A stretch of DNA of 12,976 nt from a virus. Taxonomy: Duplodnaviria > Heunggongvirae > Uroviricota > Caudoviricetes. Each line of letters opens with the position of its first letter. Position 1 is the stretch's first letter. The stretch lies in the IMG/VR virus record IMGVR_UViG_2778261571_000007; one strand, written 5' to 3'. This document shows positions 1-12,976 of the stretch, in pieces. Position numbers and translations under genes: made by a program. Under the pieces are notes generated by a model, which saw only the letters and a program-made list of their open reading frames with translations, was not told the DNA's origin and made no database searches.

Positions 1-28
1 AGGGACAGCTGATAGAAACAGAAGCCAC
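1..28 (-). CDS. insA: InsA (IS1) 5' fragment, cut by the window edge
   Basis: The reverse complement of 2-28 reads GTG GCT TCT GTT TCT ATC AGC TGT CCC, i.e. M-A-S-V-S-I-S-C-P, the InsA N-terminus. A GAGG Shine-Dalgarno lies upstream on the minus strand. Confidence 0.75.
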
Positions 29-83
29 TGGAGCACCTCAAAAACACCATCATACGCTAAATCAGTAAGTTGGCAGCATCACC
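1..83 (-). mobile_element. IS1 insertion sequence, terminal 83 bp (insA-proximal end), element continues leftward past the window edge
   Basis: Bases 1-83 are the reverse complement of the IS1 end as I recall it (GGTGATGCTGCCAACTTACTGATTTAGTGTATGATGGTGTTTTTGAGGTGCTCCAGTGGCTTCTGTTTCTATCAGCTGTCCCT), with one mismatch at window position 56. The terminal inverted repeat ends at 83 (...GCATCACC). Confidence 0.9.
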
Positions 84-223
84 CAAACAACGCTTATTAT
101 TAAAAGCGGTTAAACAAATTAAATTTTAATGTTATGCAAATTTGTCAGATCACCATAATATCTCATTTGAAAACCGCTGAAATAACAATCCTATCAGGAT
201 TAATCATATTAAGGTGAGTAAAT

Positions 224-310
224 ATGGAAAACAACAAATCTGCACATTACGCTCCTTTTTTATCTGTAATACTTTTTGTTTTTTGCTGTGTATGGGCATT
301 ATTTTTATAA
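224..310 (+). CDS. Hypothetical 28-aa hydrophobic peptide (MENNKSAHYAPFLSVILFVFCCVWALFL); may be spurious
   Basis: ATG at 224 is preceded by AAGGTGAG at 211-218. The predicted peptide has a polar N-terminus followed by one hydrophobic helix-length segment. It sits in an AT-rich region and I recognise no homolog. Confidence 0.2.
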   Translation: MENNKSAHYAPFLSVILFVFCCVWALFL

Positions 311-385
311 AAATATTCACAGATAAAATAAACTCGCCGAATCAGGTTAAGTGTGGGTGCGTTGAGGATGCCTGACACATCAGAG

Positions 386-409
386 GCGGCGAGGGATTTC
401 TCCCTCGCC
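386..409 (-). terminator. Stem-loop immediately 3' of hok (GGCGAGGGA-TTTC-TCCCTCGCC); candidate hok mRNA 3' fold-back/terminator structure
   Basis: A 9-bp perfect inverted repeat with a 4-nt loop starts about 10 nt downstream of the hok stop codon on the minus strand. No clear U-tract follows, so function as an intrinsic terminator is uncertain. Confidence 0.4.
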
Positions 410-418
410 TAGTCACTC

Positions 419-574
419 TTACTCCTCAGGTTCGTAAGCTGTGAAGACAGCGACCTCCGTCTGACCGGTTCGGATTCGCACCTCGCAGAGGTCTTTCCTC
501 GTTACCAGTGCCGTCACTATGACGGTTAAACAGATGACAATCAGTGCGACTAACATCGCCTTTTGCTGCTTCAT
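419..574 (-). CDS. hok: Hok/Gef family type I toxin (51 aa, small membrane-damaging peptide)
   Basis: The translation MKQQKAMLVALIVICLTVIVTALVTRKDLCEVRIRTGQTEVAVFTAYEPEE matches the Hok/Gef signature (N-terminal transmembrane helix, conserved RKDLCE...R.G..EVA.F.AYE) and is near-identical in pattern to E. coli HokC/HokD as I recall them. ATG at 572-574 has a GGAG Shine-Dalgarno upstream. Confidence 0.9.
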   Translation of the reverse strand: MKQQKAMLVALIVICLTVIVTALVTRKDLCEVRIRTGQTEVAVFTAYEPEE

Positions 575-631
575 AGCCTGCTTCTCCTTGCCTTCCGGCG
601 CGTAAGAGGCTAACCTACATGTGCAAAGCAT
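419..631 (-). CDS. Mok-like in-frame upstream extension of hok (70 aa), putative translational-coupling ORF
   Basis: The ORF starts at the ATG at 631 and reads in frame into hok. Its N-terminal extension MLCTCRLASYAPEGKEKQA resembles the MokC extension pattern. Whether it is translated is not determinable from sequence. Confidence 0.45.
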   Translation of the reverse strand: MLCTCRLASYAPEGKEKQAMKQQKAMLVALIVICLTVIVTALVTRKDLCEVRIRTGQTEVAVFTAYEPEE

Positions 632-1294
632 GAAATTGGCCTCAGATTAATGTTAAGCGTCTTGCCGGACGCGTAATGTTATCTGGGGCTTTTCTCTATC
701 TGCCTTTGGTGTTCATGCCTGAGGCAGATAGCCTCAAGCACCCGCAGCAATTCTACTTAACTCCCGTCACCTCGCCAATATAAAATCAATCAGAAAGGCG
801 ATCCATAAGAACAACAGCAAGACAATAAATTGCCATTACAGCCGCAATAGCTAGCGCACATTTGAGAACCAGCACGACAACCTCCTGTATTGGACGTACA
901 CCAGTTCTGATAAATATGAGGCTGTCTCATCATTGATTCAATATAACTATTGGGTATAGTTTCTGTGATTTTGTTCTGTAGAAATGGAACACAACAACCA
1001 GTCACCACCAGCACTTCTTTAAATACGCCAAGTCCGACGCAAGCTAACCTTCTAGTCCGCTTTGAGCGAGGAGCGGACCAAACCCGGCCAACTGACTCTT
1101 AAAGGGGCCGCAGGAATTTTTCGTCTGAACTTTCGAAGCTCCTCTCCCTGAAGACAGAAAACTTCTGTGTGCTGTGGGAATATTGAATCTTTGCCTTAGA
1201 TATAAATAATTTTATCCCGCCTGAAGTTTACATTATTTTATTTATCTGTTTTTCTAAATCAGACTGCACTCCTTACTTAAATCAGGAGCCAGTC

Positions 1295-2494
1295 ATGCCA
1301 TTTGTTATTTATGTGTTTACTATCAGTGCCTTTGCGCTCGGACTCGCGGAATTTGTCCCCATTGGGCTGACAGACGTTATGGCTCAGGGGTTGTGTGTGG
1401 GTGTGGAGCAGACCGGGGCAGCGGTTACAACCTATGCACTGGGGGCAACGTTCGCGGCACCCGTACTGTCTGCGCTGACAGCAAGCTGGAGCCGGAAAAA
1501 TGTAATGCTTACAACTGCCGTTGTGTTTACTGCCGGTAGTCTGGCGGCCGCGTTTGCAGCCACATTACCTCAGCTCCTGTTAGCGCGGTTCATTGCTGGT
1601 CTGGGACACGGCCTGTTTCTGGCTGCGGCATCCAGTACCGCAGCTCGTCTTGCTGGACCGGGTAAAGCAGGCAGAGCGGTGGCTGTGGTATTTGGTGGCT
1701 TTACTCTGGCGATGGCAATCGGCGTACCGCTGAGTACATGGTTGGGGGGGGTGGTCTCATGGCGTCCAGTTCTCGGCGCTATTGCCGCTTTTGGCGCGTT
1801 CGGATTCCTTGGACTGTTGTTCGGTATGAAAGATCCCGTACGCAGCGTGCCCGGTGAACATAGTGACTCAGCAATGCAGAATATCGGCATGCTGTTTAAC
1901 CGTAAGTTGCTGGCCGGCGCGCTGGTTACGGTGCTGGCGTATGCAGGCTCGTTTACGGATTACACCTTTATCGCACCTATTCTGACGCAGGTGACAGGGG
2001 TTACCGGAGCAACGGTGAGTCTGTTTATGCTGGTTTACGGTATTACAGCTGCGGTAGGTAATATTCTTGGTGGGAAACTTACCGACAGCATGGGGGTTAA
2101 TCGTGCCAATATACTCATCATTAGCGGCATTGTTGTTGTCGTGCTTGGTATGTGGCTGCTGTCATCCTCACCGGTGAGCATGGGCATTCTGGTTGCGCTG
2201 CTGGGTATGGTGACATTTGCCGCAGTGCCGGCACTGCAGGCCCGTCTGATTGGTGTCGCTGAGCAACATGCTCCTCATGCGCATGGTGTTGCTGCCGGCC
2301 TGAATATTGCGGGCTTCAACTCAGGTATAGCGCTGGGATCAGTACTGGGCAGCATTACTATAAGCCACGCCGGTATCGTGTATACCGGTATCAGCGGTGC
2401 GATTGTTTCTCTGCTCGGCCTGCTGTTGCTGCTTGCACAAATCCGTCGCAGCCACAGTCGTAAATTTCAACAGGTTAAAATCGTAGGCCAGTAA
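1295..2494 (+). CDS. MFS transporter, DHA1-type efflux pump (SotB/YdeA/NepI-like), 399 aa
   Basis: The protein is highly hydrophobic with a 12-helix-like pattern. It has an N-terminal EFVPIGL motif and a loop G(x)GKAGRAVAVVFGGFTLAMAIGVPL that align to the SotB-type sugar/purine efflux family. A GGAG Shine-Dalgarno lies 8 nt upstream. Confidence 0.88.
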   Translation: MPFVIYVFTISAFALGLAEFVPIGLTDVMAQGLCVGVEQTGAAVTTYALGATFAAPVLSALTASWSRKNVMLTTAVVFTAGSLAAAFAATLPQLLLARFIAGLGHGLFLAAASSTAARLAGPGKAGRAVAVVFGGFTLAMAIGVPLSTWLGGVVSWRPVLGAIAAFGAFGFLGLLFGMKDPVRSVPGEHSDSAMQNIGMLFNRKLLAGALVTVLAYAGSFTDYTFIAPILTQVTGVTGATVSLFMLVYGITAAVGNILGGKLTDSMGVNRANILIISGIVVVVLGMWLLSSSPVSMGILVALLGMVTFAAVPALQARLIGVAEQHAPHAHGVAAGLNIAGFNSGIALGSVLGSITISHAGIVYTGISGAIVSLLGLLLLLAQIRRSHSRKFQQVKIVGQ

Positions 2495-2505
2495 AGGGAG
2501 GTTAT

Positions 2506-3198
2506 ATGCTTACCCGTGAAAATATGCTTAATGGCACATTTGTCAGGGTGCATGAAGCGCTGCTCCCGGCGAATATGCTCTGGGACGCTGAAAAAATACG
2601 CGCATCAATGAACTCTACTCTGGAGGAGCGCCCGACGGGTGCTCCTGTCTGGATATTTGCCTACGGGTCATTGATGTGGAATCCCGTGCTGGCGATTGAA
2701 GAAATGCAACGGGCCCGTCTGAAAGGATTGCAGCGCAGTTTCTGCATTCGTTTGATATCCGGACGAGCGACTCCTGATGTCCCCGGCAGGATGTTATCGC
2801 TCGACGAAGGTGGAATTACCGAAGGTATTGCGTTCAGACTGCCGGAATCGACTCTTATTAATGAGCTGGAAATTGTCTGGACGCGCGAGATGATAACCGG
2901 TCTTTACCGTCCGGTCTGGGCAGACGTTTCGCTAGGAAACGGTGAGGAAATTCAGGCGCTGGCTTTCGTATCAGACAGACTGCATCCGCATTATGAACAG
3001 GACAATCTTACAGCGACCGTAGCGTTGAGCATCGCATCTGCCCGTGGAGACATTGGCACGAATGCAGATTATGTATGGAAACTGCAGGCCACTCTGGGTG
3101 CGTTGGGAATACGGGATGATTACGTGAGTGAACTGGCCCTTGCTCTGCATGAGGCTCCCTGTAACGATAAACTTCATCAGCGAGGCGCTTCACTATGA
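2506..3198 (+). CDS. ChaC-like gamma-glutamylcyclotransferase (glutathione-specific GGCT family), 230 aa
   Basis: The translation carries the hallmark YGSLMWNP motif and aligns along its length to E. coli ChaC as I recall it (e.g. PVWIFAYGSLMWNP, FC(I/L)RL, GRMLSLDEGG, WTREMITG). A strong AGGGAGG Shine-Dalgarno lies upstream; the gene starts 12 bp after the MFS stop. Confidence 0.85.
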   Translation: MLTRENMLNGTFVRVHEALLPANMLWDAEKIRASMNSTLEERPTGAPVWIFAYGSLMWNPVLAIEEMQRARLKGLQRSFCIRLISGRATPDVPGRMLSLDEGGITEGIAFRLPESTLINELEIVWTREMITGLYRPVWADVSLGNGEEIQALAFVSDRLHPHYEQDNLTATVALSIASARGDIGTNADYVWKLQATLGALGIRDDYVSELALALHEAPCNDKLHQRGASL

Positions 3199-4076
3199 GC
3201 CATCTGAGCCATCTGCGAACGTTTCTTGAGGCCTATCGCTCTGGCTCCTTTTCAAAGGCGGCAGAACTACTGGGCATCACTCAGCCCGCGGCGTCACAGC
3301 ATATCCAGTCTCTTGAGACTCTGGTTGGTAAGCGTCTGTTTATCAGGCAGGCCAGAGGCGTGACGGCAACCGAAGCTGCGGATGAGCTTGCCCGCTCAGT
3401 TTCACCCTTCATTGATGGTCTGGAAGAAAAGCTGTCCTCTTTCCGGTCAGGCTCTGTACGCGGGGGAACAATTAATCTGGCAGGACCGCCAGATTTTATT
3501 CATTCCCGGCTTGGGACAGTAATGGCTCCACTAATGAAGGAGGGGTATCGCCTACGCTTTCATACCGGCAATAAGCAACGTATTTATTCCCTTTTGCATG
3601 ACGGGAGCGCCGATCTCGCTGTTACCGCATCTATGCCTGATGACCGTCTGTACGGCTATGCACATCTACTGACTGAACGCATGCTCCTTGTTCATGCTCC
3701 CGCCATGTCAGAGATCATCGGATCAGAACCTGGTGCTGAAACGCTTGCCTCATTACCGCTGATTGCTTATGACGAAGAGTTGCCACTGATTAGAGCGCTC
3801 TGGGCCTCCATGTTTCAGAGAGCCCCTGAGATGCAGGCTACATTCACCATTCCGGATTTACGTATTATCCGCGACTTGGTCTGTGACGGCCACGGGTGGA
3901 CAGTGCTGCCGGATTATCACTGTGACAATGACCTGAAAAGTGGTCGCCTGATTTCAGTGACACCTGCAGACCTCGCTCCGACTAATCATCTTTATCTGGT
4001 CTGGAACAAAAGGACGGCTAATAACAGCCGAACCGCCTATGTTCGGGATTACATTCTTAAAACGTTTCCGCGTTGA
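3195..4076 (+). CDS. LysR-family transcriptional regulator, 293 aa
   Basis: The N-terminus has the LysR helix-turn-helix signature (LRTFLEAYRSGSFSKAAELLGITQPAASQHIQSLE), and the length and C-terminal domain are typical of the family. The start codon overlaps the ChaC-like stop (ATGA), implying co-transcription. Confidence 0.9.
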   Translation: MSHLSHLRTFLEAYRSGSFSKAAELLGITQPAASQHIQSLETLVGKRLFIRQARGVTATEAADELARSVSPFIDGLEEKLSSFRSGSVRGGTINLAGPPDFIHSRLGTVMAPLMKEGYRLRFHTGNKQRIYSLLHDGSADLAVTASMPDDRLYGYAHLLTERMLLVHAPAMSEIIGSEPGAETLASLPLIAYDEELPLIRALWASMFQRAPEMQATFTIPDLRIIRDLVCDGHGWTVLPDYHCDNDLKSGRLISVTPADLAPTNHLYLVWNKRTANNSRTAYVRDYILKTFPR

Positions 4077-4120
4077 TGTTTGAAACGGATGATTGGCGAT
4101 GCGTATCATAAGTTACGTAT

Positions 4121-4150
4121 GTCCGCTTCTGGCACAAAGCAGACGCCCAC
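4121..4150. repeat. Copy A of a 30-bp imperfect direct repeat (GTCCGCTTCTGGCACAAAGCAGACGCCCAC)
   Basis: 24 of 30 positions match copy B at 7794-7823 in the same orientation. It lies in the convergent intergenic gap between the LysR gene and the DUF2254-like gene. Confidence 0.6.
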
Positions 4151-4206
4151 TCTCACGCGAATGCTTTGCCCTTGACTTGCCAACAACCGTATCGCTTGCT
4201 CCGCAA

Positions 4207-5484
4207 CTATGGTTTTTTATTAGAATCTTCGCCACTAAATAAATTATAATAAATTGATTTTATTAGATATCTGTCAGAATCTATATGGTCAGCACGAGTA
4301 GCATGCTCTAATGTTTCAAATGCTAGGGTTTGTGCGGCTTCAGCAAAAATTCCAGGCCAACCCTTACTCAGCATCGACAGTCCTTTAAGTACCCTTATCT
4401 GAATTTCCCTCATACTGGCACCATCGCGCGCAACAGGTGAGAAAAAGTCTTCAAGTAGATCGTTATTCTGAAGTGGTGCAACATGTACAGAAGGATATTT
4501 CACTTCTATTTCATCAGATTTATTCTGCGCGTAAGCGGAAAGTATACGTACACCTCTGCCAATGACATCAATGGCGGTTCCAGGATCGTTCACTGCGGGG
4601 GAAAGGGCTCGGCAGGCTATTTCGGCCATGACGCTAAGACAAAATCGGGGGTCCTGAGCAAATGAACGTACATCCGAGACAATAATCGTCTCAAGTAAAT
4701 CGGTGCTGATTGATGACTCCTGGCCCTGACTCAGGTACAAAACTGGCGTGGACGGATGTATGAAACTGCCCGGCTGCGCCACGAGGTATACATGACGGGG
4801 ATCATTGGTCAGCAGCTTGCTGAGTTTCACCATATCAACATATTCAACATAGCCAATCTTTTTCGGATAAACTGCAACCGTTCCTTTCGGCTGTTCATTG
4901 TTCTCAAGCCATGGATATCCGCCGAGACAGGGATTTCTTGCTCTCGCAATAAATGTTTCGATGGCCGCCTGTTCTACTTTTGCCGTTGTCTCACCAACCC
5001 TCCCCAGAGAGGTCAAATGCTGTATCCAGCGAAGCAATGTGATGAGGATTAAGGCAATGACAACCAGTGTTACAATGAATAAAATGACTCTCCCCCTTTC
5101 TCCATAAGCTCCCATATTGAGGGCAATAATCCCTACCAGACTGAAGAGAAAAGAACCGATGAAGGTGGCCAGTACATTTTGTGTGGTGACGTCTTCAACA
5201 ACTAAACGAGTAGCTCTGGGAGTCACATTAGTAGTGGCTGAACCGTAGGCTGTGACCATGATGCTCAGCGAAAATGTGGTCACTGCCAGCATACTCGATG
5301 CCAGTATGTTCAGAATGTTATCGACTGCTTCCGCACCAACCTTCACGGAAACCGACTCAGGTATCATTGATTTAAAAAGAATTGATAAAAGGGCCGTTAT
5401 TATTGCGACAATTGCGAATAACGTTGCCCTGAACCATAGTTTTTTAAATGTCTGCTTCAGCATCCATTTCCAGCGTGAAATCAT
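4207..5484 (-). CDS. Integral membrane protein with a large C-terminal soluble domain, DUF2254-like, about 425 aa
   Basis: A long ORF with N-terminal transmembrane segments and a conserved-looking SPAVNDPGTAID motif. The start is probably the ATG at 5482-5484 (GAGGGA Shine-Dalgarno 9 nt upstream); the ORF track's ATG at 5499 has no Shine-Dalgarno. The family assignment is from memory and moderately certain. Confidence 0.8.
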   Translation of the reverse strand: MISRWKWMLKQTFKKLWFRATLFAIVAIITALLSILFKSMIPESVSVKVGAEAVDNILNILASSMLAVTTFSLSIMVTAYGSATTNVTPRATRLVVEDVTTQNVLATFIGSFLFSLVGIIALNMGAYGERGRVILFIVTLVVIALILITLLRWIQHLTSLGRVGETTAKVEQAAIETFIARARNPCLGGYPWLENNEQPKGTVAVYPKKIGYVEYVDMVKLSKLLTNDPRHVYLVAQPGSFIHPSTPVLYLSQGQESSISTDLLETIIVSDVRSFAQDPRFCLSVMAEIACRALSPAVNDPGTAIDVIGRGVRILSAYAQNKSDEIEVKYPSVHVAPLQNNDLLEDFFSPVARDGASMREIQIRVLKGLSMLSKGWPGIFAEAAQTLAFETLEHATRADHIDSDRYLIKSIYYNLFSGEDSNKKP

Positions 5485-5509
5485 TCTGCATTCCCTCATA
5501 TTGCAGCCG

Positions 5510-5541
5510 GGATAAATAAATGCCGCCTCTGTGGCGGCATG
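5510..5541 (-). terminator. Rho-independent terminator downstream of the BetT-like gene
   Basis: On the minus strand: ATGCCGCC-ACAGA-GGCGGCAT (8-bp GC-rich stem) followed directly by TTTATTTAT, starting 7 nt after the BetT-like stop. Confidence 0.7.
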
Positions 5542-5547
5542 TTGCTG

Positions 5548-7551
5548 TTAACGAACCAGATGCAGGAAGTGCAGGTGTTTTTCGTACTGGTCCAGTATGT
5601 CATTAATCAGCTGTTCCTGATTCCAGCCCATTACATCATAATTTTGGCCGCCCTCTTTGAGATAGACTTCAGCGCGATAATATCGATGTTGTTCACTCTG
5701 CTGCTCATCATTATCCAGCGCAGCGAGCGCGAAGGTCGGTGAGTTATACCCGCGAAGCCTCACTTCATATATATAATTCAGCTCGTTGCCCAAATCGACT
5801 TCAAGGCGAATACGATCCTCGGCGGCGTCACTGATGTGGCTTATCGTTCCCTGCTTGTTAAGTTCCTCCTGAACCAGCGTCATGGCGGGTTGGATAATGT
5901 CGTCCATAAAACGTTTCACAAGAGAGCGCTTCGGCAAATACGCGATATTGCGTAACCTTCTCTGCCAGGGAATTGGGTTACGTGCAGCCGTAGGAGCAAT
6001 AGTCGCCATGCTAAGGCTTTCACGTTTGGTCAAATCCCGACGCAGGGCTTTTAACAGTCCGTATATGGATATTAATAAGATAACTGAGAAGGGCAATGCA
6101 CTCGCTATCGTTACGGTTTGCAACGCACTCAGCCCCCCTGCGATCAGCAGGGCAATAGCAACAACGCCCATGAGCGATGCCCAGAAAATTCGCTGCCAGA
6201 CGGGCGTGTTTGCCACCCCACCTGATGCCAGAGTATCCACAACCATTGCCCCCGAATCAGCAGACGTTACAAAGAAGACGATGACCATCGCCATTGCAAT
6301 GAATGACAGCACGGAAGAGAACGGGAAATGCTCCAGGAAATTAAACAGGGCAAGCGCAACATCCTGCTGAACGGTATTGGCGAGGTCAGTGGCGCCCTGG
6401 TTCATGATGAGATAGATGGCGCTGTTTCCAAACACCGTCATCCACATGAGCGTAAAGCCGGCGGGAACAAACAACACGCCAGTCACGAACTCACGAATTG
6501 TCCTGCCGCGGGAAACGCGTGCAATGAACATACCTACAAACGGCGACCATGAAAGCCACCATCCCCAGTATAATAATGTCCAGCCCCCCAGCCAGTTGCT
6601 CGACTTGGGTTCATACGCGTAAAGGTTGAACGTTTTACTCACCAGTTCCGACAGATAACCACCCGTATTTTCCACAAATGACTTCAGCAGAAGCACAGTG
6701 GGACCCAGGCACAAGACCAGCGCCAGGAGCAACACCGCCAGGCCCAGATTAAGCTCAGACAGGATGCGTATTCCCTTGTCCAGGCCGGACACCACCGAAA
6801 TCGTCGCTAACCCCGTGATGACCACGATCAAAATGACCTGTACCGTTTCATTGATGGGCACGCCGAAAAGATGGTTCAAACCGGCATTCACCTGCAATAC
6901 ACCGTAACCCAGCGATGTTGCAACGCCAAAGACAGTGCCTATCACGGCGAAGATATCAACCGCGTGGCCTATAGGCCCGTAAATGCGATCGCCGATAATG
7001 GGATAGAGCGCAGAACGCAGCGTTAAAGGCAGACCGTGACGGTAACTGAAAAAGGCCAGAATCAGCGCCACGATGGCATAAATTGCCCATGCGTGCAGAC
7101 CCCAGTGGAAGAACGTCAGGCGCATGGCTTCCTTCGCTGCCGCAACGGTCTCTGGAGTGCCGACAGGTGGCGAAAGATAATGCATCACAGGTTCGGCAAC
7201 GCCAAAGAACATCAGGCCGATCCCCATCCCTGCCGAAAAAAGCATCGCGAACCAGGAGTGGTAGCTGAAATCAGGCTGCGCATGGTCTGGGCCCAGCTTT
7301 ATATCACCGTAACGTGAGAGTCCAAGGAACGTGACGCTCAGTAAAATCAGGGCCACAGCAAGTATGTAGAACCAGCTGGCATTCGTGAAGATTTGTTGCT
7401 GAAGTAGTTTAAAATTTTTGTCGGCGACATCCGGGAATACGGCGGCAAAGGCGACAAGAAGGAAAATTAGCAAAGCAGATGTAAAGAATACCGCTTTGTT
7501 AATCTGGCTTGTAGACTTCTTTGGGGTTGTATCATTTTCACTCATAATCAT
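5548..7551 (-). CDS. BCCT-family transporter, BetT-like (choline/betaine/carnitine family), 667 aa
   Basis: The translation aligns throughout with E. coli BetT as I recall it (e.g. KLGP(E/D)..P(E/D)FS..SW.AMLF.AG.GI.LMFF.VAEP, WSPFVG(M/L)F(I/L)ARISRGRTIR(E/Q)FV, VTSADSGA) and includes a long C-terminal cytoplasmic tail. No betI/betB/betA genes are adjacent. Confidence 0.9.
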   Translation of the reverse strand: MIMSENDTTPKKSTSQINKAVFFTSALLIFLLVAFAAVFPDVADKNFKLLQQQIFTNASWFYILAVALILLSVTFLGLSRYGDIKLGPDHAQPDFSYHSWFAMLFSAGMGIGLMFFGVAEPVMHYLSPPVGTPETVAAAKEAMRLTFFHWGLHAWAIYAIVALILAFFSYRHGLPLTLRSALYPIIGDRIYGPIGHAVDIFAVIGTVFGVATSLGYGVLQVNAGLNHLFGVPINETVQVILIVVITGLATISVVSGLDKGIRILSELNLGLAVLLLALVLCLGPTVLLLKSFVENTGGYLSELVSKTFNLYAYEPKSSNWLGGWTLLYWGWWLSWSPFVGMFIARVSRGRTIREFVTGVLFVPAGFTLMWMTVFGNSAIYLIMNQGATDLANTVQQDVALALFNFLEHFPFSSVLSFIAMAMVIVFFVTSADSGAMVVDTLASGGVANTPVWQRIFWASLMGVVAIALLIAGGLSALQTVTIASALPFSVILLISIYGLLKALRRDLTKRESLSMATIAPTAARNPIPWQRRLRNIAYLPKRSLVKRFMDDIIQPAMTLVQEELNKQGTISHISDAAEDRIRLEVDLGNELNYIYEVRLRGYNSPTFALAALDNDEQQSEQHRYYRAEVYLKEGGQNYDVMGWNQEQLINDILDQYEKHLHFLHLVR

Positions 7552-7793
7552 TTATTCCATTAATTAAATCCGCACTGGATAGAAGGTACTACCTCTCACA
7601 GAGTAGCAAAGTTCAACTGGCTATGCGGGGTTAATCGGAATGCATGGTGGAATGAGTGCCGATACAAATCATCCTATATTCTAAGGAGTTTTAAGTTACT
7701 CAGCCTGCCAATTACTGGGGCATTTAATTTGTATGATCTGTATCAAAGCTGGGATATAAGTTAAGTGAAGTATATTAGGCACGAATTACCAGC

Positions 7794-7823
7794 GTCTGCT
7801 CTTGGCACAAAGCGGACAACCAC
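7794..7823. repeat. Copy B of the 30-bp imperfect direct repeat (GTCTGCTCTTGGCACAAAGCGGACAACCAC)
   Basis: Matches copy A (4121-4150) at 24 of 30 positions. It lies between the BetT-like start and the end of the phage 140-aa gene. Confidence 0.6.
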
Positions 7824-7885
7824 GCTAGCTCTACCCTGTGCCACAAAATGTCAATTTGCATCTGAACTAATGCACTTTAATCTCG

Positions 7886-8308
7886 TCACTTCAATAAATA
7901 CCGAACATCCCCCTGATAAAACGACAATATGCGCTGCATAACTTCGCTCTTCCGGCACTCGCGACAGATTATGTTTAGGCGACTGTCGTAGCGACGTATT
8001 TCTCCGTCAGGTAATGACCAGATAAGGTCCGGATCAACCACAACCGGTTTCTTCAGCTTTGCCCTCGATAATTTTTTGCGGGCATTTTGCCAGTCTTTAC
8101 GAGCCTGTTCAGACGGGAATAACCCGTAGCCAGAATTGTATACATCGCCACTGGCAACCAGCTCTCTGGCCAGAACGCTCATCAGATATCTTGTTGCCCC
8201 AGTTTTAGCTTCCAGTTGTCGTAACGTCTCGCGCCCACTCTGGCGTACGAGTTCAAGAACCTGCCCTTTAATTTTTTCCCGCTCTTCTTGTGTAAAAACT
8301 TTTGCCAC
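7886..8308 (-). CDS. Phage-associated hypothetical protein (140 aa), last gene of the rightward early operon; function unknown
   Basis: GTG start at 8306-8308 with a strong AGGAGGG Shine-Dalgarno 5 nt upstream. It lies 40 bp downstream of the replisome-organizer gene. The basic protein has a C-terminal CRECRK motif and no recognisable helicase or helicase-loader motifs. Confidence 0.6.
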   Translation of the reverse strand: MAKVFTQEEREKIKGQVLELVRQSGRETLRQLEAKTGATRYLMSVLARELVASGDVYNSGYGLFPSEQARKDWQNARKKLSRAKLKKPVVVDPDLIWSLPDGEIRRYDSRLNIICRECRKSEVMQRILSFYQGDVRYLLK

Positions 8309-8348
8309 AAGCCCTCCTGAAAATTACCTCATGACCAGAAATTAACAC

Positions 8349-9419
8349 TTACCCCCTGAAGCCCGGCGGAATTTCGTTATCCGGTTCAGAAATATGATTC
8401 ACACAACGCTGGTTGTTCGTGCCGCTTACCGGGAGCAACCAGGGGTTCTCAAAATTCCGGTCCGGTCCAAAAAACGTCGTCGCTCGCTGAACAAATTCCG
8501 TTCCCGTTTTCCCGGTAGCCGCCAAGTATCTTGCGTAACGCCTCACGCCATCCAGCATGGCCTCTGGTGGCACCCCCTCGCGTAATCTGGCCTTCCAGGC
8601 ACTGAAAGCGGATTTCTTCGGGTTTGCCCCAGCACGCAACGGGTACTCCCGCCAGACCTGTTCGAACACATCCGGATAATCCACTCGTCCCACAGACTGC
8701 CCGGTGTTTTCCGGGACTACCCGATCGGCTTCCCGCTGAATGGCGGAATCGGCTTCAGGCTGCTGCAGTTGGTGTGATTGCTCCGCCCTTGCGGTCATCA
8801 CCTGCTGCACAGCGCCCGAATCGGCTTTCAGCGCATACGCTGAATCGGCTTCCGGTGTCGTGCCTGCTGGCTGACCAAGATTGACGGTCTGAACATCCCC
8901 TGCCTGGTTCGTGGCGTTTTTTACGCCATGGACCATAGTGTTTTGATCTTCTTGATCTGTATCTTTATCTGTATCTTTATCTGTCGTGACTCGTCGTGAC
9001 ATGTGCGTGACATTTCGTGACGCGCCGTGACAATCGCCATTTTGTTCCCGCTTTCTTTCCCTCTCTCGCTGCGCCCTCTTGCGCTCTGCAGGAGATTTTG
9101 CGGTTTGCGAAATATTGCCGTTGTCCTCTTTAAGCACCTGGCGTTTTTCCCATCCAGTGATTAAATCACCATCAAGTACCCGCCCCTGCATCGTCTGCAA
9201 AATTGAATCAATTACCTCTTCTGTCACGTCGAGCGCACTTGCCAAATCTTCTGTCGTGACATCAATGTGACCTCGCGTGACATTTCGTGACGCGCTCACC
9301 AGGAGGTGGATATACACTGCCATCACTGTTGCAATTGGCTGTCCTGACACCCTGGCAATTGTTCGCCACTTAGGGTCATTTGGCATGTCATGCCATAATC
9401 TGAGCCAGGCGTTAGCCAT
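8349..9419 (-). CDS. Phage replication initiator / replisome organizer (lambda O-like role), about 356 aa
   Basis: The N-terminus MANAWLRLWHDMPNDPKW resembles the phage replisome-organizer N-terminal domain pattern. The C-terminal segment F.QVW..YP...G...K..A..AW...L......E.......Y resembles the lambda O C-terminal region. Iteron-like repeats lie inside the gene, as in lambda ori. Start is probably the ATG at 9417-9419 (GAGGTGA Shine-Dalgarno); an in-frame GTG at 9425 is also possible. Confidence 0.75.
   Translation of the reverse strand: MANAWLRLWHDMPNDPKWRTIARVSGQPIATVMAVYIHLLVSASRNVTRGHIDVTTEDLASALDVTEEVIDSILQTMQGRVLDGDLITGWEKRQVLKEDNGNISQTAKSPAERKRAQRERERKREQNGDCHGASRNVTHMSRRVTTDKDTDKDTDQEDQNTMVHGVKNATNQAGDVQTVNLGQPAGTTPEADSAYALKADSGAVQQVMTARAEQSHQLQQPEADSAIQREADRVVPENTGQSVGRVDYPDVFEQVWREYPLRAGANPKKSAFSAWKARLREGVPPEAMLDGVRRYARYLAATGKTGTEFVQRATTFFGPDRNFENPWLLPVSGTNNQRCVNHISEPDNEIPPGFRG
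8944..9031. repeat. Putative replication origin core: tandem ATCTKT hexamers followed by five helically phased CGTGAC iterons
   Basis: ATCT recurs at 8946-8976 as (ATCTGT ATCTTT)x2 ATCTGT. CGTGAC then occurs at 8985, 8995, 9006, 9016 and 9026, a 10-11 bp periodicity, all in the same orientation inside the replication gene. Confidence 0.6.
9218..9291. repeat. Second iteron cluster inside the replication gene
   Basis: (C/T)GTGAC occurs at 9255, 9266, 9276 and 9286 with 10-11 bp phasing. One inverted GTCACG lies at 9223, and CTTCTGTC is duplicated at 9218 and 9248. The 21-mer GCGTGACATTTCGTGACGCGC at 9276-9296 is an exact copy of 9005-9025. Confidence 0.55.
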
Positions 9420-9490
9420 ACTCACCTCTTTTGATACCGAATCTTTTTACTCACAAATTGCCGGAAGTGATCCGGTATGAATATTGCGAG

Positions 9491-9916
9491 TCAATGCACA
9501 GCCACAATATTTCCTGCAGGGCCACCACGATTCATCTGGTTGAAACCAGCGATCGCCACTGCGACAAAATCATCAGCGTCTCTCACCAGTCGTTCCCGCG
9601 TCTCCACTAGTTCCCGAAAATAGGCTGAGCTATGGCTGCGCATTCGGGCCACCAGCAGAGGTGGCATTGCTTTTTCGATAGCTGGTAACAACGCCTGAAT
9701 TTTTTCAACTGCATCAGGGGTGTCTTTCTCTACCCAGCGGAAAATTTTCTGGGTATTGCGAGCCAGGGCTTCCGGATGGCTGTCGTCATACAGTTCTGGG
9801 AACGTCATACCCAGTTCAAAATAAGCCCTGGTTATTTCAGCTGCCGGAACTTTTTCACCGTCCGGATGCGCCCAGGCATTCATCGCCATGCGGATGTGTT
9901 CATGCTTGATTTTCAT
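9491..9916 (-). CDS. YdaT-like protein (lambdoid CII-position gene of Rac-type prophages), 141 aa
   Basis: The position directly after the Cro-like gene and before the replication gene, and the length (141 aa), match ydaT of Rac-type prophages. AGGAG Shine-Dalgarno 8 nt upstream. The start overlaps the 3' end of the upstream gene by 17 bp. Confidence 0.65.
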   Translation of the reverse strand: MKIKHEHIRMAMNAWAHPDGEKVPAAEITRAYFELGMTFPELYDDSHPEALARNTQKIFRWVEKDTPDAVEKIQALLPAIEKAMPPLLVARMRSHSSAYFRELVETRERLVRDADDFVAVAIAGFNQMNRGGPAGNIVAVH

Positions 9917-10181
9917 GAATCAAGCTCCTAGAAAGTGGTTGTGTTAACATTTTGGTATCTTCCAGCTCGGGCCAAATATTCATCCAATCAAAAGGCCTTA
10001 GTTGCTGACGTGTAACTTCACCATTACTGGCTCGCTCAATAAGGACACATAACGATGCCCCTAACACTTGACCTTTACTCAATGCCTTTCTTAGATAACC
10101 GATGCTGGTACCACACTCGCATGCAAACATACGCTGTTCATCTGACGAAAGAGAATTGAGAAATATTCTTAATTCTTCCAT
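9900..10181 (-). CDS. Cro-like helix-turn-helix regulator (YdaS family), 93 aa
   Basis: Divergent from the repressor gene. It contains a helix-turn-helix-like segment ...CGTSIGYLRKALSKGQ... followed by GEVTRQQLRP, typical of the YdaS/Cro-like family. AAGGAG Shine-Dalgarno 7 nt upstream of the ATG at 10179-10181. Confidence 0.7.
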   Translation of the reverse strand: MEELRIFLNSLSSDEQRMFACECGTSIGYLRKALSKGQVLGASLCVLIERASNGEVTRQQLRPFDWMNIWPELEDTKMLTQPLSRSLIHENQA

Positions 10182-10204
10182 AGCTACTCCTTAGTAAACA
10201 CAGC

Positions 10205-10286
10205 AAAGAATACCCATAGGTAAACAAAAGTCAATACCCACAGGTTGTTTACCTTGCAGTAATCGCATCTATTATTTACCTATGGA
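10205..10286. promoter_or_regulatory. Divergent immunity-region promoter/operator (OR-like): repeated TACCCA(T/C)AGG / AGGTAAACA motifs with candidate promoter elements on both strands
   Basis: TACCCATAGGTAAACA at 10211-10226; TACCCACAGGTTGTTTACC at 10235-10253; TTTACCTATGG at 10275-10285, overlapping the repressor start codon. Minus-strand -35 TTGACT (plus 10229-10234) and -10 TATTCT (plus 10207-10212) with a 16-bp spacer precede the Cro-like gene. Plus-strand -10 TATTAT at 10270-10275 ends 6 nt before the repressor ATG. Confidence 0.6.
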
Positions 10287-10701
10287 CAAATATGAATTTA
10301 GACGACAGCAACTCATCAAAATTCGTGATGAGAAATGCGATGGTAAAGCGGTTAACGTGGCCAGAAAGATCGGGCGCGAGCCTTCTTATGTATCAAGAAT
10401 GTTGTACCCAGAGGGGAAAAAGGGAAAAAAACGGATCGCTGATGATATGGTGGAGATTATCGAAGAGTCCTTTGGGTTACCCCGGGGATGGATGGATGGT
10501 ATCGTTTCATCATCAACGAACACAGCCTCCAGTTATGAAACAAGGGTTCTAACGCCACGACAACGTATTTTTTTAGATCTCTTAGACGAACTGCCAGAAA
10601 GTGAAGCGGATAACTTATTAAAAACTCTTGAAGAGAAAAAACAGTATTACAATATGATCTACGAAGAAATCCGTAAAAAGAAAGCACAAAACGCATCATA
10701 G
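10282..10701 (+). CDS. Prophage repressor, RacR/CI-position gene, 139 aa
   Basis: Divergent from the Cro-like gene and flanked on both sides by the same operator-like motif. It has a putative helix-turn-helix segment (AVNVARKIGREPSYVSRML) and an acidic C-terminal domain. No Shine-Dalgarno is present, which is consistent with a leaderless transcript. Identity with RacR is inferred from synteny, not sequence recall. Confidence 0.7.
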   Translation: MDKYEFRRQQLIKIRDEKCDGKAVNVARKIGREPSYVSRMLYPEGKKGKKRIADDMVEIIEESFGLPRGWMDGIVSSSTNTASSYETRVLTPRQRIFLDLLDELPESEADNLLKTLEEKKQYYNMIYEEIRKKKAQNAS

Positions 10702-10744
10702 CTCACCAAACAACTAGTCACCAGTTAAGACACCGCAAAAAGTT

Positions 10745-10780
10745 ACCCATGGGTATTTACTTTTTAAATACCTATGGGTA
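10745..10780. promoter_or_regulatory. OL-like operator / hairpin downstream of the repressor gene: TACCCATGGGTATTTA-CTTTTT-AAATACCTATGGGTA
   Basis: A near-perfect 16-bp inverted repeat carries the same TACCCATRGGTA motif seen in the divergent promoter region. It is followed by TCCTTCTTTT, so it could also act as the repressor-gene terminator. Confidence 0.55.
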
Positions 10781-10955
10781 TCCTTCTTTTCATACCAACC
10801 CACCCCGCCCCACAGAATGCAGGGCAATACTTCGAGTTACCAGGCAGTGGTCAGGGGTTAAGTAGCCAGCCCGAGGCGTAAGAACATGACGGCGGGATTC
10901 AAATTTTGCAGTGCAGCAGTTAGTTCCGCCACCCGGCGTTAAGGGGAGAGATAAG

Positions 10956-11090
10956 ATGGTGCATTACGAAGTAGTTCAGTATTTGATGGATTGTTGCGGT
11001 ATCACTTACAACCAGGCTGTGCAGGCTTTACGCAGCAACGACTGGGATCTCTGGCAGGCAGAAGTCGCTATACGTAGCAACAAGATGTGA
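10956..11090 (+). CDS. Small phage ORF, 44 aa (YdaG-position)
   Basis: ATG at 10956 has an AAGGGGAGAG Shine-Dalgarno 6 nt upstream. Translation: MVHYEVVQYLMDCCGITYNQAVQALRSNDWDLWQAEVAIRSNKM. Its size and position between the repressor and sieB match ydaG of the Rac prophage. It is below the ORF-track size cut-off. Confidence 0.5.
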   Translation: MVHYEVVQYLMDCCGITYNQAVQALRSNDWDLWQAEVAIRSNKM

Positions 11091-11100
11091 GATTCGCAAA

Positions 11101-11256
11101 ATGCAAAAAATCGACCTCGGCAACAACGAATCCCTGGTGTGCGGCGTGTTCCCCAACCAGGATGGAACGTTCACTGCCATGACGTATACCAAAAGCAAAA
11201 CATTTAAAACCGAAACTGGTGCGCGCCGATGGTTGGAGAAGCACACAGTAAGCTAA
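11101..11256 (+). CDS. Small phage ORF, 51 aa (YdaF-position)
   Basis: ATG at 11101. Translation: MQKIDLGNNESLVCGVFPNQDGTFTAMTYTKSKTFKTETGARRWLEKHTVS. Size and position match ydaF of Rac. The Shine-Dalgarno is weak. Its 3' end overlaps the convergent sieB stop by 4 bp. Confidence 0.45.
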   Translation: MQKIDLGNNESLVCGVFPNQDGTFTAMTYTKSKTFKTETGARRWLEKHTVS

Positions 11257-11741
11257 CGATTAAAACGTCTACTCCTGCTGTTCCAGAATAACTTCATAAA
11301 ATGGGAGTATTTTTCGGTGACGAGATAATAAGAACAGTTTGCGCTATCACTCTGATGTTGAATGATGCCCTTCCGTTCTAATTTTTTCATAACCGGGTTA
11401 CGGCAAGGAGAAGTGATAATAAGATTTCCTGTTTTAAGGAAATCTTTAAATACAGCGATTTCTTTCTCAGATAAACGAAGCAATACTCGTTGCTCTGGTA
11501 GTAATGAATAATGCTTTTGAATATGTGCTCGCAATCTTGAGAAGGAAATGGCGACCACGAAAGAAAAGGCAAAAACGATAATCTGAAAGAGCCAAGGCAT
11601 TTCAGTATAAGCATTGAATGCGACAGTAAACTCTTTCGGTATCAGCCAGAGAGTGAGACCAAAAATGATAATCGTATACATAAGTCTTTCGAGTGGCTCG
11701 TTAGCAAAAAGTTTCAACAATGGAGTAAATACATCCAACAT
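11253..11741 (-). CDS. sieB: Superinfection exclusion protein B (SieB), 162 aa
   Basis: Begins MLDVFTPLLKLFANEPLERLMYTIIIFGLTLWLIP and has two transmembrane segments with a basic C-terminal part, the SieB family pattern. Start is the ATG at 11739-11741 with a GAGAG Shine-Dalgarno. The 266-aa ORF in the track is an unsupported upstream extension of this gene. Confidence 0.75.
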   Translation of the reverse strand: MLDVFTPLLKLFANEPLERLMYTIIIFGLTLWLIPKEFTVAFNAYTEMPWLFQIIVFAFSFVVAISFSRLRAHIQKHYSLLPEQRVLLRLSEKEIAVFKDFLKTGNLIITSPCRNPVMKKLERKGIIQHQSDSANCSYYLVTEKYSHFMKLFWNSRSRRFNR

Positions 11742-11958
11742 ATCAATAACTCTCAACTGTAAGGGTATTGAAATGTTAACACAAGCTCTCGCTGTAGGGG
11801 TATAGCCGAGACCACCGAAGCCCGGAGGTGGTGAAATAAAACCGGGCACAACACGAAGGCGCATTTCCGATATCCATAAAGAGTCGGTCTTGTCTGTTAA
11901 ATTTAAATGGTGGAGTGCGCCTCCGGTTGTAAATAACGACATTGCTGTGTGTAGTCCT

Positions 11959-12009
11959 GGCGGCATCAGTTTTTTTCTTGAAGTTCGGCTGATGTCCGCC
12001 CTTTTTAAA
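11959..12009 (+). terminator. Strong hairpin (11-bp stem with one bulge, 19-nt loop) followed by CTTTTTAAA; candidate intrinsic terminator or regulatory RNA structure between sieB and kilR
   Basis: GGCGGCATCAG at 11959-11969 pairs with CTGATGTCCGCC at 11989-12000, followed by CTTTTT at 12001-12006. Confidence 0.4.
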
Positions 12010-12181
12010 GTGAATTTTGTGATGCGGTGAATGCGGCTAAGCGCACGTGGCACAGTTAAAAGTCATGTTAGTCCTTATTGGTTTGGGTGGGAAAGCCGAC
12101 TGTAATTGTTAACTGGTTGCAGTCACCTGGAGGCACCAGGCACCGCATCAACAAAGTTCATTTGTAAAAATGGAGATAATT

Positions 12182-12403
12182 ATGATTGCACATCACTTCG
12201 GAACTGATGAAATACCACGTCAGTGTGTGACTCCTGGCGATTATGTTCTTCATGAAGGCCGGACATATATTGCCTCGGCAAACAATATTAAAAAGCGAAA
12301 ACTATATATTCGTAACCTGACCACAAAAACATGCATTACTGACCGCATGATTAAAGTCTTCCTCGGTCGTGATGGTTTACCTGTAAAGGCGGAGTCATGG
12401 TGA
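12182..12403 (+). CDS. kilR: KilR-like cell-division (FtsZ) inhibitor, 73 aa
   Basis: ATG at 12182 has a GGAGA Shine-Dalgarno 5 nt upstream; the ORF-track start at 12170 lies inside that Shine-Dalgarno. The length (73 aa) and position (next to sieB, followed by the small zinc-finger ORF and the RacC-like gene) reproduce the Rac order kilR-ydaE-racC. The sequence [14 protein letters not shown]... is consistent with my recollection of KilR. Confidence 0.7.
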
Positions 12404-12573
12404 TGACTAAGAAAATAAAATGTGCTTACCACCTTTGCAAAAAAGACGTTGAAGAAAGCAAAGCTATTGAAAGAATGCTTCACTTCATGCACGGGATTTT
12501 ATCAAAAGACGAACCGAGAAAATATTGCAGTGAAGCTTGTGCCGAAAAAGACCAGATGGCACATGAACTTTAA
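12397..12573 (+). CDS. Small zinc-finger-like protein, 58 aa (YdaE-position)
   Basis: The start ATG at 12397 overlaps the kilR stop (ATGGTGA), implying translational coupling. It has four Cys arranged CxxxxC...CxxxC (KCAYHLC ... YCSEAC). Translation: [58 protein letters not shown]. Confidence 0.6.
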
Positions 12574-12647
12574 TTAATTGACTATTCGAAACTGAATTTA
12601 TGCCAGAAATGGCAGGTATTCGCTCAACCTTAATTAAGGAGAAAAAC

Positions 12648-12944
12648 ATGATTACCAATTATGAAGCCACTGTTGTAACTACCGATGACATTGTTCACGA
12701 GGTGAATCTGGAAGGAAAGCGCATTGGCTACGTAATTAAAACAGAAAATAAAGAAACCCCATTCACTGTGGTTGATATCGATGGTCCATCAGGCAACGTA
12801 AAAACACTTGATGAAGGTGTCAAAAAAATGTGCCTGGTGCATATCGGAAAGAATCTGCCCGCAGAAAAAAAAGCCGAATTTCTGGCAACTCTAATTGCAA
12901 TGAAATTAAAAGGTGAAATCTGGGTGATGCTGCCAACTTACTGA
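12648..12944 (+). CDS. RacC-position phage protein; native coding sequence runs to 12922 and the last 7 codons plus stop are supplied by the IS1 inverted repeat
   Basis: Strong AAGGAG Shine-Dalgarno 6 nt before the ATG at 12648. The reading frame enters the IS1 terminal repeat at 12923, which then encodes VMLPTY and the stop. The native portion is about 91 codons, the size of RacC. Confidence 0.6.
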   Translation: MITNYEATVVTTDDIVHEVNLEGKRIGYVIKTENKETPFTVVDIDGPSGNVKTLDEGVKKMCLVHIGKNLPAEKKAEFLATLIAMKLKGEIWVMLPTY

Positions 12945-12976
12945 TTTAGTGTATGATGGTGTTTTTGAGGTGCTCC
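12923..12976 (+). mobile_element. IS1 insertion sequence, first 54 bp (insA-proximal terminal repeat), element continues rightward past the window edge
   Basis: GGTGATGCTGCCAACTTACTGATTTAGTGTATGATGGTGTTTTTGAGGTGCTCC matches the IS1 terminus as I recall it. The insA GTG start would lie just past the window end. This copy is inverted relative to the copy at 1-83. Confidence 0.9.

Follow-up and report, generated by a model that had tools for sequence, protein, structure and literature searches.

IS1 termini at both ends of an Escherichia coli draft contig probably mark two separate insertions in a Rac-like prophage

The stretch of DNA analysed here, which we call the window, is 12,976 nucleotides (nt) long, is listed in IMG/VR as virus record IMGVR_UViG_2778261571_000007, and carries prophage genes between two inverted termini of the insertion sequence IS1. 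The left copy (window 1-83, minus strand, IS1 nt 83 to 1) matches in reverse complement, base for base, nt 1-83 of a 768-bp IS1 of the IS1A family annotated in Escherichia coli S171-1. It comprises the left inverted repeat (IRL) together with the opening 28 nt of insA, whose GTG start occupies minus-strand positions 28-26 of the window. The right copy (12923-12976, plus strand) corresponds to IS1 nt 1-54, the IRL end, with a single mismatch, T for C at IS1 nt 28, and ends 2 nt short of the GTG. The IRL (GGTGATGCTGCCAACTTACTGAT...) is found at both window ends, with 0 and 1 mismatch against IS1A-family nt 1-83 and 1-54, both junctions begin precisely at IS1 nt 1, and in both copies the IRL, which is the insA end, faces inward, the copies being in opposite orientation. 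A repeat search returned the inverted repeat 30-85/12921-12976 as its sole pair (56 nt, 98% complementary), where bases 84-85/12921-12922 (CA/TG) belong to the flanks and match by chance. The initial annotation had described this anatomy correctly, with insA ends inward and a sole difference of 56 G against 12950 T, and it had also rightly placed the right copy at the extreme 3' end of racC, which our analysis narrows to the third base of the stop codon.

The identity of the window ends as IS1 is far above chance, since the 83-nt end has about 60,000 matching places in complete E. coli genomes; these are distributed over 4,315 of the 5,426 genomes searched, with a median of 9 per genome among those with any. 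The two copies are different sequence variants of the element. At nt 28 the left one has the minority C (window 56 = G) and the right one the majority T, and only 260 of 8,362 IS1-matching records have an exact 83/83 match to the left copy as their best place. In many of the matches listed, the IS1 copy with C at nt 28 overlaps or adjoins yjiC.

Behind the left IS1 the interior starts with hokD (419-574) and the sok antisense RNA region (569-743), which together occupy 419-743 on the minus strand and are assigned from the RefSeq annotation of E. coli TOE3, NCBIfam Hok and Rfam RF01794. The sok match to RF01794 is full-length (116 bits, window 569-743, minus strand) and overlaps the 5' side of hokD, and the hok/sok module of the prophage looks intact. 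Two cargo cassettes follow, of which the first (1295-4076, plus strand) encodes an MFS transporter (1295-2494), a gamma-glutamylcyclotransferase/ChaC protein (2506-3198) and a LysR regulator (3195-4076), and the second (4207-7545, minus strand) encodes a DUF2254 protein (4207-5484) and a BCCT/BetT-type transporter (5548-7545). The next part is a Rac-like lambdoid early region (7886-12573), for which we used RefSeq annotation of collinear loci and Pfam on the source contig. It contains a DUF977/Ren-like gene (7886-8308, minus; PHROG 142 for the DUF977 homologue in locus L019), a replisome organiser (8349-9419, minus), YdaT (9491-9916, minus), a cro-like regulator (9900-10181, minus), a repressor-like open reading frame (ORF; 10282-10701, plus), ydaF (11101-11256, plus), sieB (11253-11741, minus), kilR (12182-12403, plus) and ydaE (12403-12573, plus). 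This gene content, namely hokD/sok, the MFS/ChaC/LysR group, the DUF2254/BCCT-BetT pair and the Rac-like early genes, is the one that had been read from the sequence at the outset.

According to our comparison with related genomes, the interior represents the middle of a Rac-like lambdoid prophage residing at the Rac site and not an imported block. Window 84-12922 aligns to the genome of E. coli TOE3 in a single piece with 3 mismatches, and TOE3 has no IS1 at either of the two sites. In TOE3 the left neighbours of this DNA are DUF1367/DUF1364/DUF1133 and lysis genes and its right neighbours recE, recT and ralR; xisR and intR are found further on in other relatives. At least 80% of the window is covered in 280 complete genomes. 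In one strain, E. coli SLK172 (locus L004, ~5500-11600), the space from hokD to the MFS gene is filled by a Qin-like relE-relB-ydfV-flxA group together with IS1, IS3 and ISNCY, and an IS3 interrupts the ChaC-like gene; insertion sequences generally accumulate in this part of the prophage.

The window corresponds to a draft-assembly contig in its full length, both ends of which lie inside the multi-copy IS1. An exact look-up of its extended RacC product of 98 amino acids (aa), which is described below, led to NLNA01000058.1, a contig of the draft E. coli assembly GCA_002229155.1 whose length of 12,976 bp is that of the window, and positions 2648-12976 of this contig are an exact substring of the window from 2648. 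The contig stops in IS1 on both sides because the element has many copies and a short-read assembler cannot pass such a repeat. The closest relatives have at least 40 IS1-matching pieces per record, and for ~40 randomly placed IS1 copies on 4.59 Mb one would expect ~4 neighbouring pairs at a distance of 12.8 kb or less, ~1 of them with both IRLs inward. The sizes of the two ends can be considered from the same point of view. Window 1-55 is the first 55-mer without the copy-specific base 56, and 12922-12976 is likewise exactly 55 nt long, so that the unequal ends (83 and 54 nt) would be consistent with a presumed 55-mer assembly graph. The copy-specific base 56 probably let the assembler reach 83 nt, and not ~54, into the repeat. 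The IS1 'bracket' is a pair of stopping points of an assembler, not the borders of a delimited element.

The history of the left copy can be read from two finished genomes. S171-1 and EC20-72C-1 have window 1-203 with 100% identity, the rare base 56 included, and they are the only ones among the 5,426 complete E. coli genomes with the left junction. In both of them the left IS1 is an element of 768 bp with an intact annotated transposase with programmed frameshift (insAB'), and the 9-bp sequence CAAACAACG is repeated on both sides of it as a target duplication. The empty left site of TOE3 has one copy of CAAACAACG, and the inner copy of the duplication occupies 84-92 in the window, as follows from the comparison of S171-1, EC20-72C-1 and TOE3. 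In these relatives the left IS1 is a simple insertion with its own 9-bp duplication. We infer that the left copy of the source strain is the same insertion, in which case its outer flank would read ...GGGATACAAACAACG and then continue into the right inverted repeat (IRR) end of IS1. Simple descent of the source strain from S171-1 or EC20-72C-1 is contradicted by the LysR gene, which has a 9-bp deletion in both of them (873 bp; loci L002 and L009) and is 882 bp long in the window and in TOE3.

In the racC stop codon the third base is supplied by the right IS1, which turns TGA into TGG (12921-12923), by which the ORF is extended by 7 codons (WVMLPTY) up to a new TGA within IS1 at 12942-12944; racC with its stop destroyed spans 12648-12944 on the plus strand and encodes 98 aa vs 91. 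Across its last 120 nt racC is 100% identical to that of K-12 MG1655. The empty right site in TOE3 reads ...AAATCTGA followed directly by AAGAAATAG, and at the same place the window reads ...AAATCTG followed by GGTGATG. The right junction is real: the Logan contig SRR3989754_359 is identical to window 8282-12950, and the junction was recovered there by a different assembler. The exact 98-aa product is on record only on NLNA01000058.1 and on one Logan contig, and none of the 5,426 complete E. coli genomes has the junction of racC with IS1. Judging from the empty site of TOE3 and from the 9-bp duplications of other IS1 copies, TGAAATCTG (12914-12922) is the predicted 9-bp target of the right copy, and in a simple insertion a second copy of it would follow the far end of the element. 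Most likely, this copy is a simple insertion before recE, and beyond the window its IRR end would then be followed by TGAAATCTGAAAGAAATAGCC... and by recE.

Taken together, we consider it probable, at roughly 85%, that the window is an IS1-rich E. coli draft contig from a Rac-like prophage and that its two IS1 copies are separate simple insertions which took place at different times. The left IS1, between the DUF1367 gene and hokD, would be the older one and common to at least two sequenced strains; the right IS1, in the racC stop codon, would be recent and lineage-specific; and the 12.8 kb between them is resident prophage DNA that was not delivered by the IS1 pair. No complete genome among the 5,426 has both junctions. 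Two hits (H1 and H16) that appeared as carriers of both copies were rejected, as another, internal IS1 had been joined into the hit and racC was without IS1.

Several points weigh against the reading of two simple insertions and have to be taken into account. The reads of SRR3989754 may come from the same isolate, and the Logan contig then confirms the junction and does not represent a second strain. The presence of DUF1367 outside the left copy is deduced, for the source strain, from the identical junctions in relatives. The far side of the right IS1 lies beyond the window, where a rearrangement junction is possible. Finally, the 55-mer account of the contig ends needs another IS1 copy that is preceded by G and none that is preceded by TG, for which the probability is only ~0.1 with ~40 copies and random flanks.

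The first of the alternatives concerns the right IS1, which could instead mark a rearrangement junction, formed by an IS1-mediated adjacent deletion or by recombination between two IS1 copies, with the racC end joined to DNA other than recE and with the left copy being ordinary. The lineage is IS1-rich, with at least ~40 copies in relatives, and IS1-rich genomes often carry deletions and inversions mediated by such elements. In exact-pattern scans of metagenome and genome contigs, neither the racC-IS1 junction nor its reciprocal (the IS1 IRR end, 0-14 nt, then AAAGAAATAGCC...) gave a match, and the missing reciprocal would agree with a rearrangement; these contig collections are probably without the source strain, however, and such a negative says little. 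On the other hand, the right insertion point lies in an A/T-rich stretch, as is typical for IS1 targets, and recE follows racC in the inspected cases among the 280 relatives that cover the block. We regard a rearrangement at the right end as unlikely, while it is by some distance the most serious competitor of two simple insertions.

The initial annotation had gone further and suggested that the 12.8 kb with its flanking copies is a potential IS1 composite element and a substrate for inversion. In its strong form this would mean a functional composite transposon, similar to Tn1681, which arrived or moves as a unit, and a segment flanked by two inverted IS1 termini is indeed what the window has. 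The geometry is also competent for transposition, as is illustrated by a unit in the same prophage of another strain, which is considered below. The rest of the evidence speaks for a different origin. The interior is native and collinear with IS1-free genomes, with 3 mismatches per 12.8 kb, and is not a foreign segment. The hallmark of a composite, a duplication at the outer ends only, is not seen either: in the relatives the outer flank of the left IS1 pairs with its own inner flank at 84-92. The strain distributions of the two junctions differ (left in 2 genomes vs right in 0), as do the sequence variants of the two copies. The unit is seen nowhere else in complete genomes, plasmids or phages, and coverage of the block stays below 80% in every plasmid and phage record. 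Independent insertions had been named beforehand as the conclusion to be drawn if each IS1 had its own target duplication and related strains had the same internal genes without IS1. As far as these checks apply, this is what we found, with the left copy having its own 9-bp duplication in S171-1 and EC20-72C-1 and with TOE3 containing the internal genes without either IS1. A composite element is accordingly not supported, and we hold it to be highly improbable. That the inverted copies form a substrate for inversion is trivially true for any such pair; future mobility may occur as well, but this would apply equally to any two IS1 copies.

How a genuine IS1 composite looks in this prophage can be seen in E. 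coli OSUCMP42NDM, where a 5.6-kb unit (locus L003, 6191-11814) is inserted 22 bp upstream of the MFS gene. It consists of two IS1B copies, with IRL inward and IRR outward and ~4.1 kb between them, and its cargo comprises plasmid-like genes (a Hok/Gef gene, dqlB and an eutE fragment) and a truncated ISEcp1. The 9-bp duplication TGCACTCCT is present at the outer ends of the unit only, and the insertion point corresponds to window 1265-1273. This unit serves as a positive control: the signature of a composite is visible there and is missing from the block in the window.

The last alternative, an assembly artefact in which the repeat was misattached to one or both contig ends, could appeal to the fact that the contig ends in repeats, which are the least reliable part of short-read assemblies, yet it is hardly credible given a left junction that is identical over 203 nt in two finished genomes with the rare base included, a right junction recovered independently by a different assembler from SRR3989754, and the start of both junctions at exact IS1 nt 1.

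The IS1 bracket is thus best explained by IS1 copy number, draft assembly and two ordinary insertions. By itself it matters little, and the practical lesson is that IS termini at the ends of draft contigs should not be taken as boundaries of an element. The racC-stop insertion adds a further case of IS1 polymorphism within a cryptic prophage.

A separate lead came from the borders of the cargo. The window has three sites of 24 bp, each built of 8-bp inverted arms (GTCCGCTT/AAGCGGAC) around an asymmetric 8-bp spacer, which is TGAGCGAG in type A and yTGGCACA in type B. The type A site (GTCCGCTT TGAGCGAG GAGCGGAC; 1055-1078, plus strand) lies where the hok module ends and the cargo starts. The first type B site (GTCCGCTT CTGGCACA AAGCAGAC; 4121-4144, plus) separates the two cassettes, and the second (GTCTGCTC TTGGCACA AAGCGGAC; 7794-7817, plus) stands at the end of the cargo, where the phage replication and Ren-like module starts. 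The motif occurs 3 times in the window vs 0 expected, with the pattern having been derived from these very copies. Evi and Tritos, both functional phages, are homologous to the window exactly up to 1078 and again from 7786/7793, and each has different cargo in the interval from its A to its B site; the cargo of the window is bounded by the sites, and the backbone homology breaks at the site edge. As RNA hairpins or terminators the sites were rejected, as their folding z-scores (+0.26, -0.88 and -1.63) are not significant and no T-run follows them.

The second cassette is also found outside of prophages. Window 4119-7818 is 99.9% identical, from site to site, on plasmid pPO125, and the DUF2254-BetT block is present with 99.8-99.9% identity on at least 14 plasmid records of E. 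coli and Klebsiella. On the two plasmids inspected (IncY and IncFIA; loci L007 and L008, 5001-8700) the block adjoins relB in the neighbourhood of ISKpn19-qnrS1 and IS26, with no flanking IS1, and its left site is a hybrid, GCCCGCTT-TTGGCACA-AAGCAGAC. In six contexts the BetT cassette has six different combinations of left arm and first spacer base and is constant from spacer position 2, from which it follows that the cassette junction lies inside the site. Judged by their sequence, the two B sites of the window look like hybrids as well, made of a backbone arm and a cassette arm with the T:A variant.

The site was present in at least 120 loci of IMG/VR. The slot between hok and the Ren-like (DUF977) gene has 16 different lengths across 29 lambdoid loci and is empty in none, and an empty lambdoid slot had no match in the IMG/VR scans. 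Altogether 103 site-bounded segments from IMG/VR formed 72 cargo clusters, which is a minimum for the A...B pair, and some of this cargo matches the candidate defence families PDC-S15, PD-T7-1 and PDC-S33. The A...B pair has a second backbone, which is P2-like, and there it is located between genes for tail-fibre assembly and tail sheath (e.g. loci L013, L072, L074 and L113). In phage P2 itself (AF063097), the classic moron fun(Z) is bracketed by a B-type site at 15335-15358 and a degenerate A-type site at 17432-17455 (locus L133, 336-359 and 2433-2456). In the ~120 loci sampled, no cargo was common to lambdoid and P2-like slots.

Papers on accessory hotspots of P2-like phages state that the mechanism of exchange is unknown (PMC9122126, PMC13586616), and the 24-bp sites are not mentioned in these main papers on P2 hotspots. 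From our analysis it is conceivable, and we put it forward only tentatively, that the mobile units are the cassettes 1079-4120 and 4145-7793 and that the 24-bp sites are heterospecific inverted recombination sites, as used in recombinase-mediated cassette exchange. As a part of this suggestion, the DUF2254-BetT cassette would have moved from site to site onto the qnrS1 plasmids. The junctions of the BetT cassette are compatible with strand exchange in the spacer and likewise with short-homology recombination at a conserved palindrome or hairpin. A test of arm covariation (C/T arm variant, Fisher; aggregate mismatch counts) was not significant for half-sites travelling with the cargo, and the IMG/VR scan gave no match for the BetT cassette joined to itself, as a circle or in tandem. 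A dedicated recombinase for these sites is putative, and none was identified. Judging by its title, a 2004 paper by Nilsson et al. (Mol Biol Evol 21:1), which the hotspot papers cite, deals with site-specific recombination in P2-like phages, and the sites may have been described there already. If the suggestion is true, cassette-exchange sites would explain how unrelated phages and plasmids exchange accessory and defence genes so quickly. Palindromic sites at the exact cargo borders of lambdoid phages, P2-like phages and resistance plasmids deserve attention in their own right, and, if they are recombination sites, hotspot swapping becomes testable.

Compared with known systems, the IS1 copies of the window resemble simple IS1 insertions (768 bp, 9-bp duplication) in their exact IRL termini and, as far as the left copy in relatives is concerned, in the length of 768 bp, the insAB' frameshift and the 9-bp duplication; unlike in a fully sequenced insertion, only 83 and 54 nt of them are visible in the window, and the racC-stop site is occupied in 0 of the 5,426 complete genomes. 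Among IS1 composites, Tn9 has direct and Tn1681 inverted IS1 copies. The window shares with composites the two IS1 copies around a segment, in the orientation of the OSUCMP42NDM unit; that unit, however, has foreign plasmid-like cargo and a single outer 9-bp duplication, whereas the window has resident prophage DNA and a left IS1 with its own duplication.

With Rac of K-12 and Rac-like lambdoid prophages the window has in common racC, ydaE, kilR, sieB, ydaF, ydaT and the replisome organiser, and its relatives continue with recE, recT, ralR, xisR and intR. In contrast to Rac of K-12, this version of the prophage keeps hok/sok, the Q-side DUF1367/1364/1133 module and the lysis genes, the last two being seen in relatives, and it carries two cassettes of transport and metabolic cargo. 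The nearest known counterpart of the cassette slot is the fun(Z) hotspot of P2, between the tail-fibre assembly gene G and the tail-sheath gene FI, where the same two 24-bp sites are found; in P2-like IMG/VR contigs they enclose varied cargo, and their orientation relative to each other agrees with that in the window. The slot of the window differs from it in its lambdoid backbone, where it extends from hok to the Ren-like/DUF977 gene, and in being filled with two cassettes, which encode transport and metabolic rather than defence functions.

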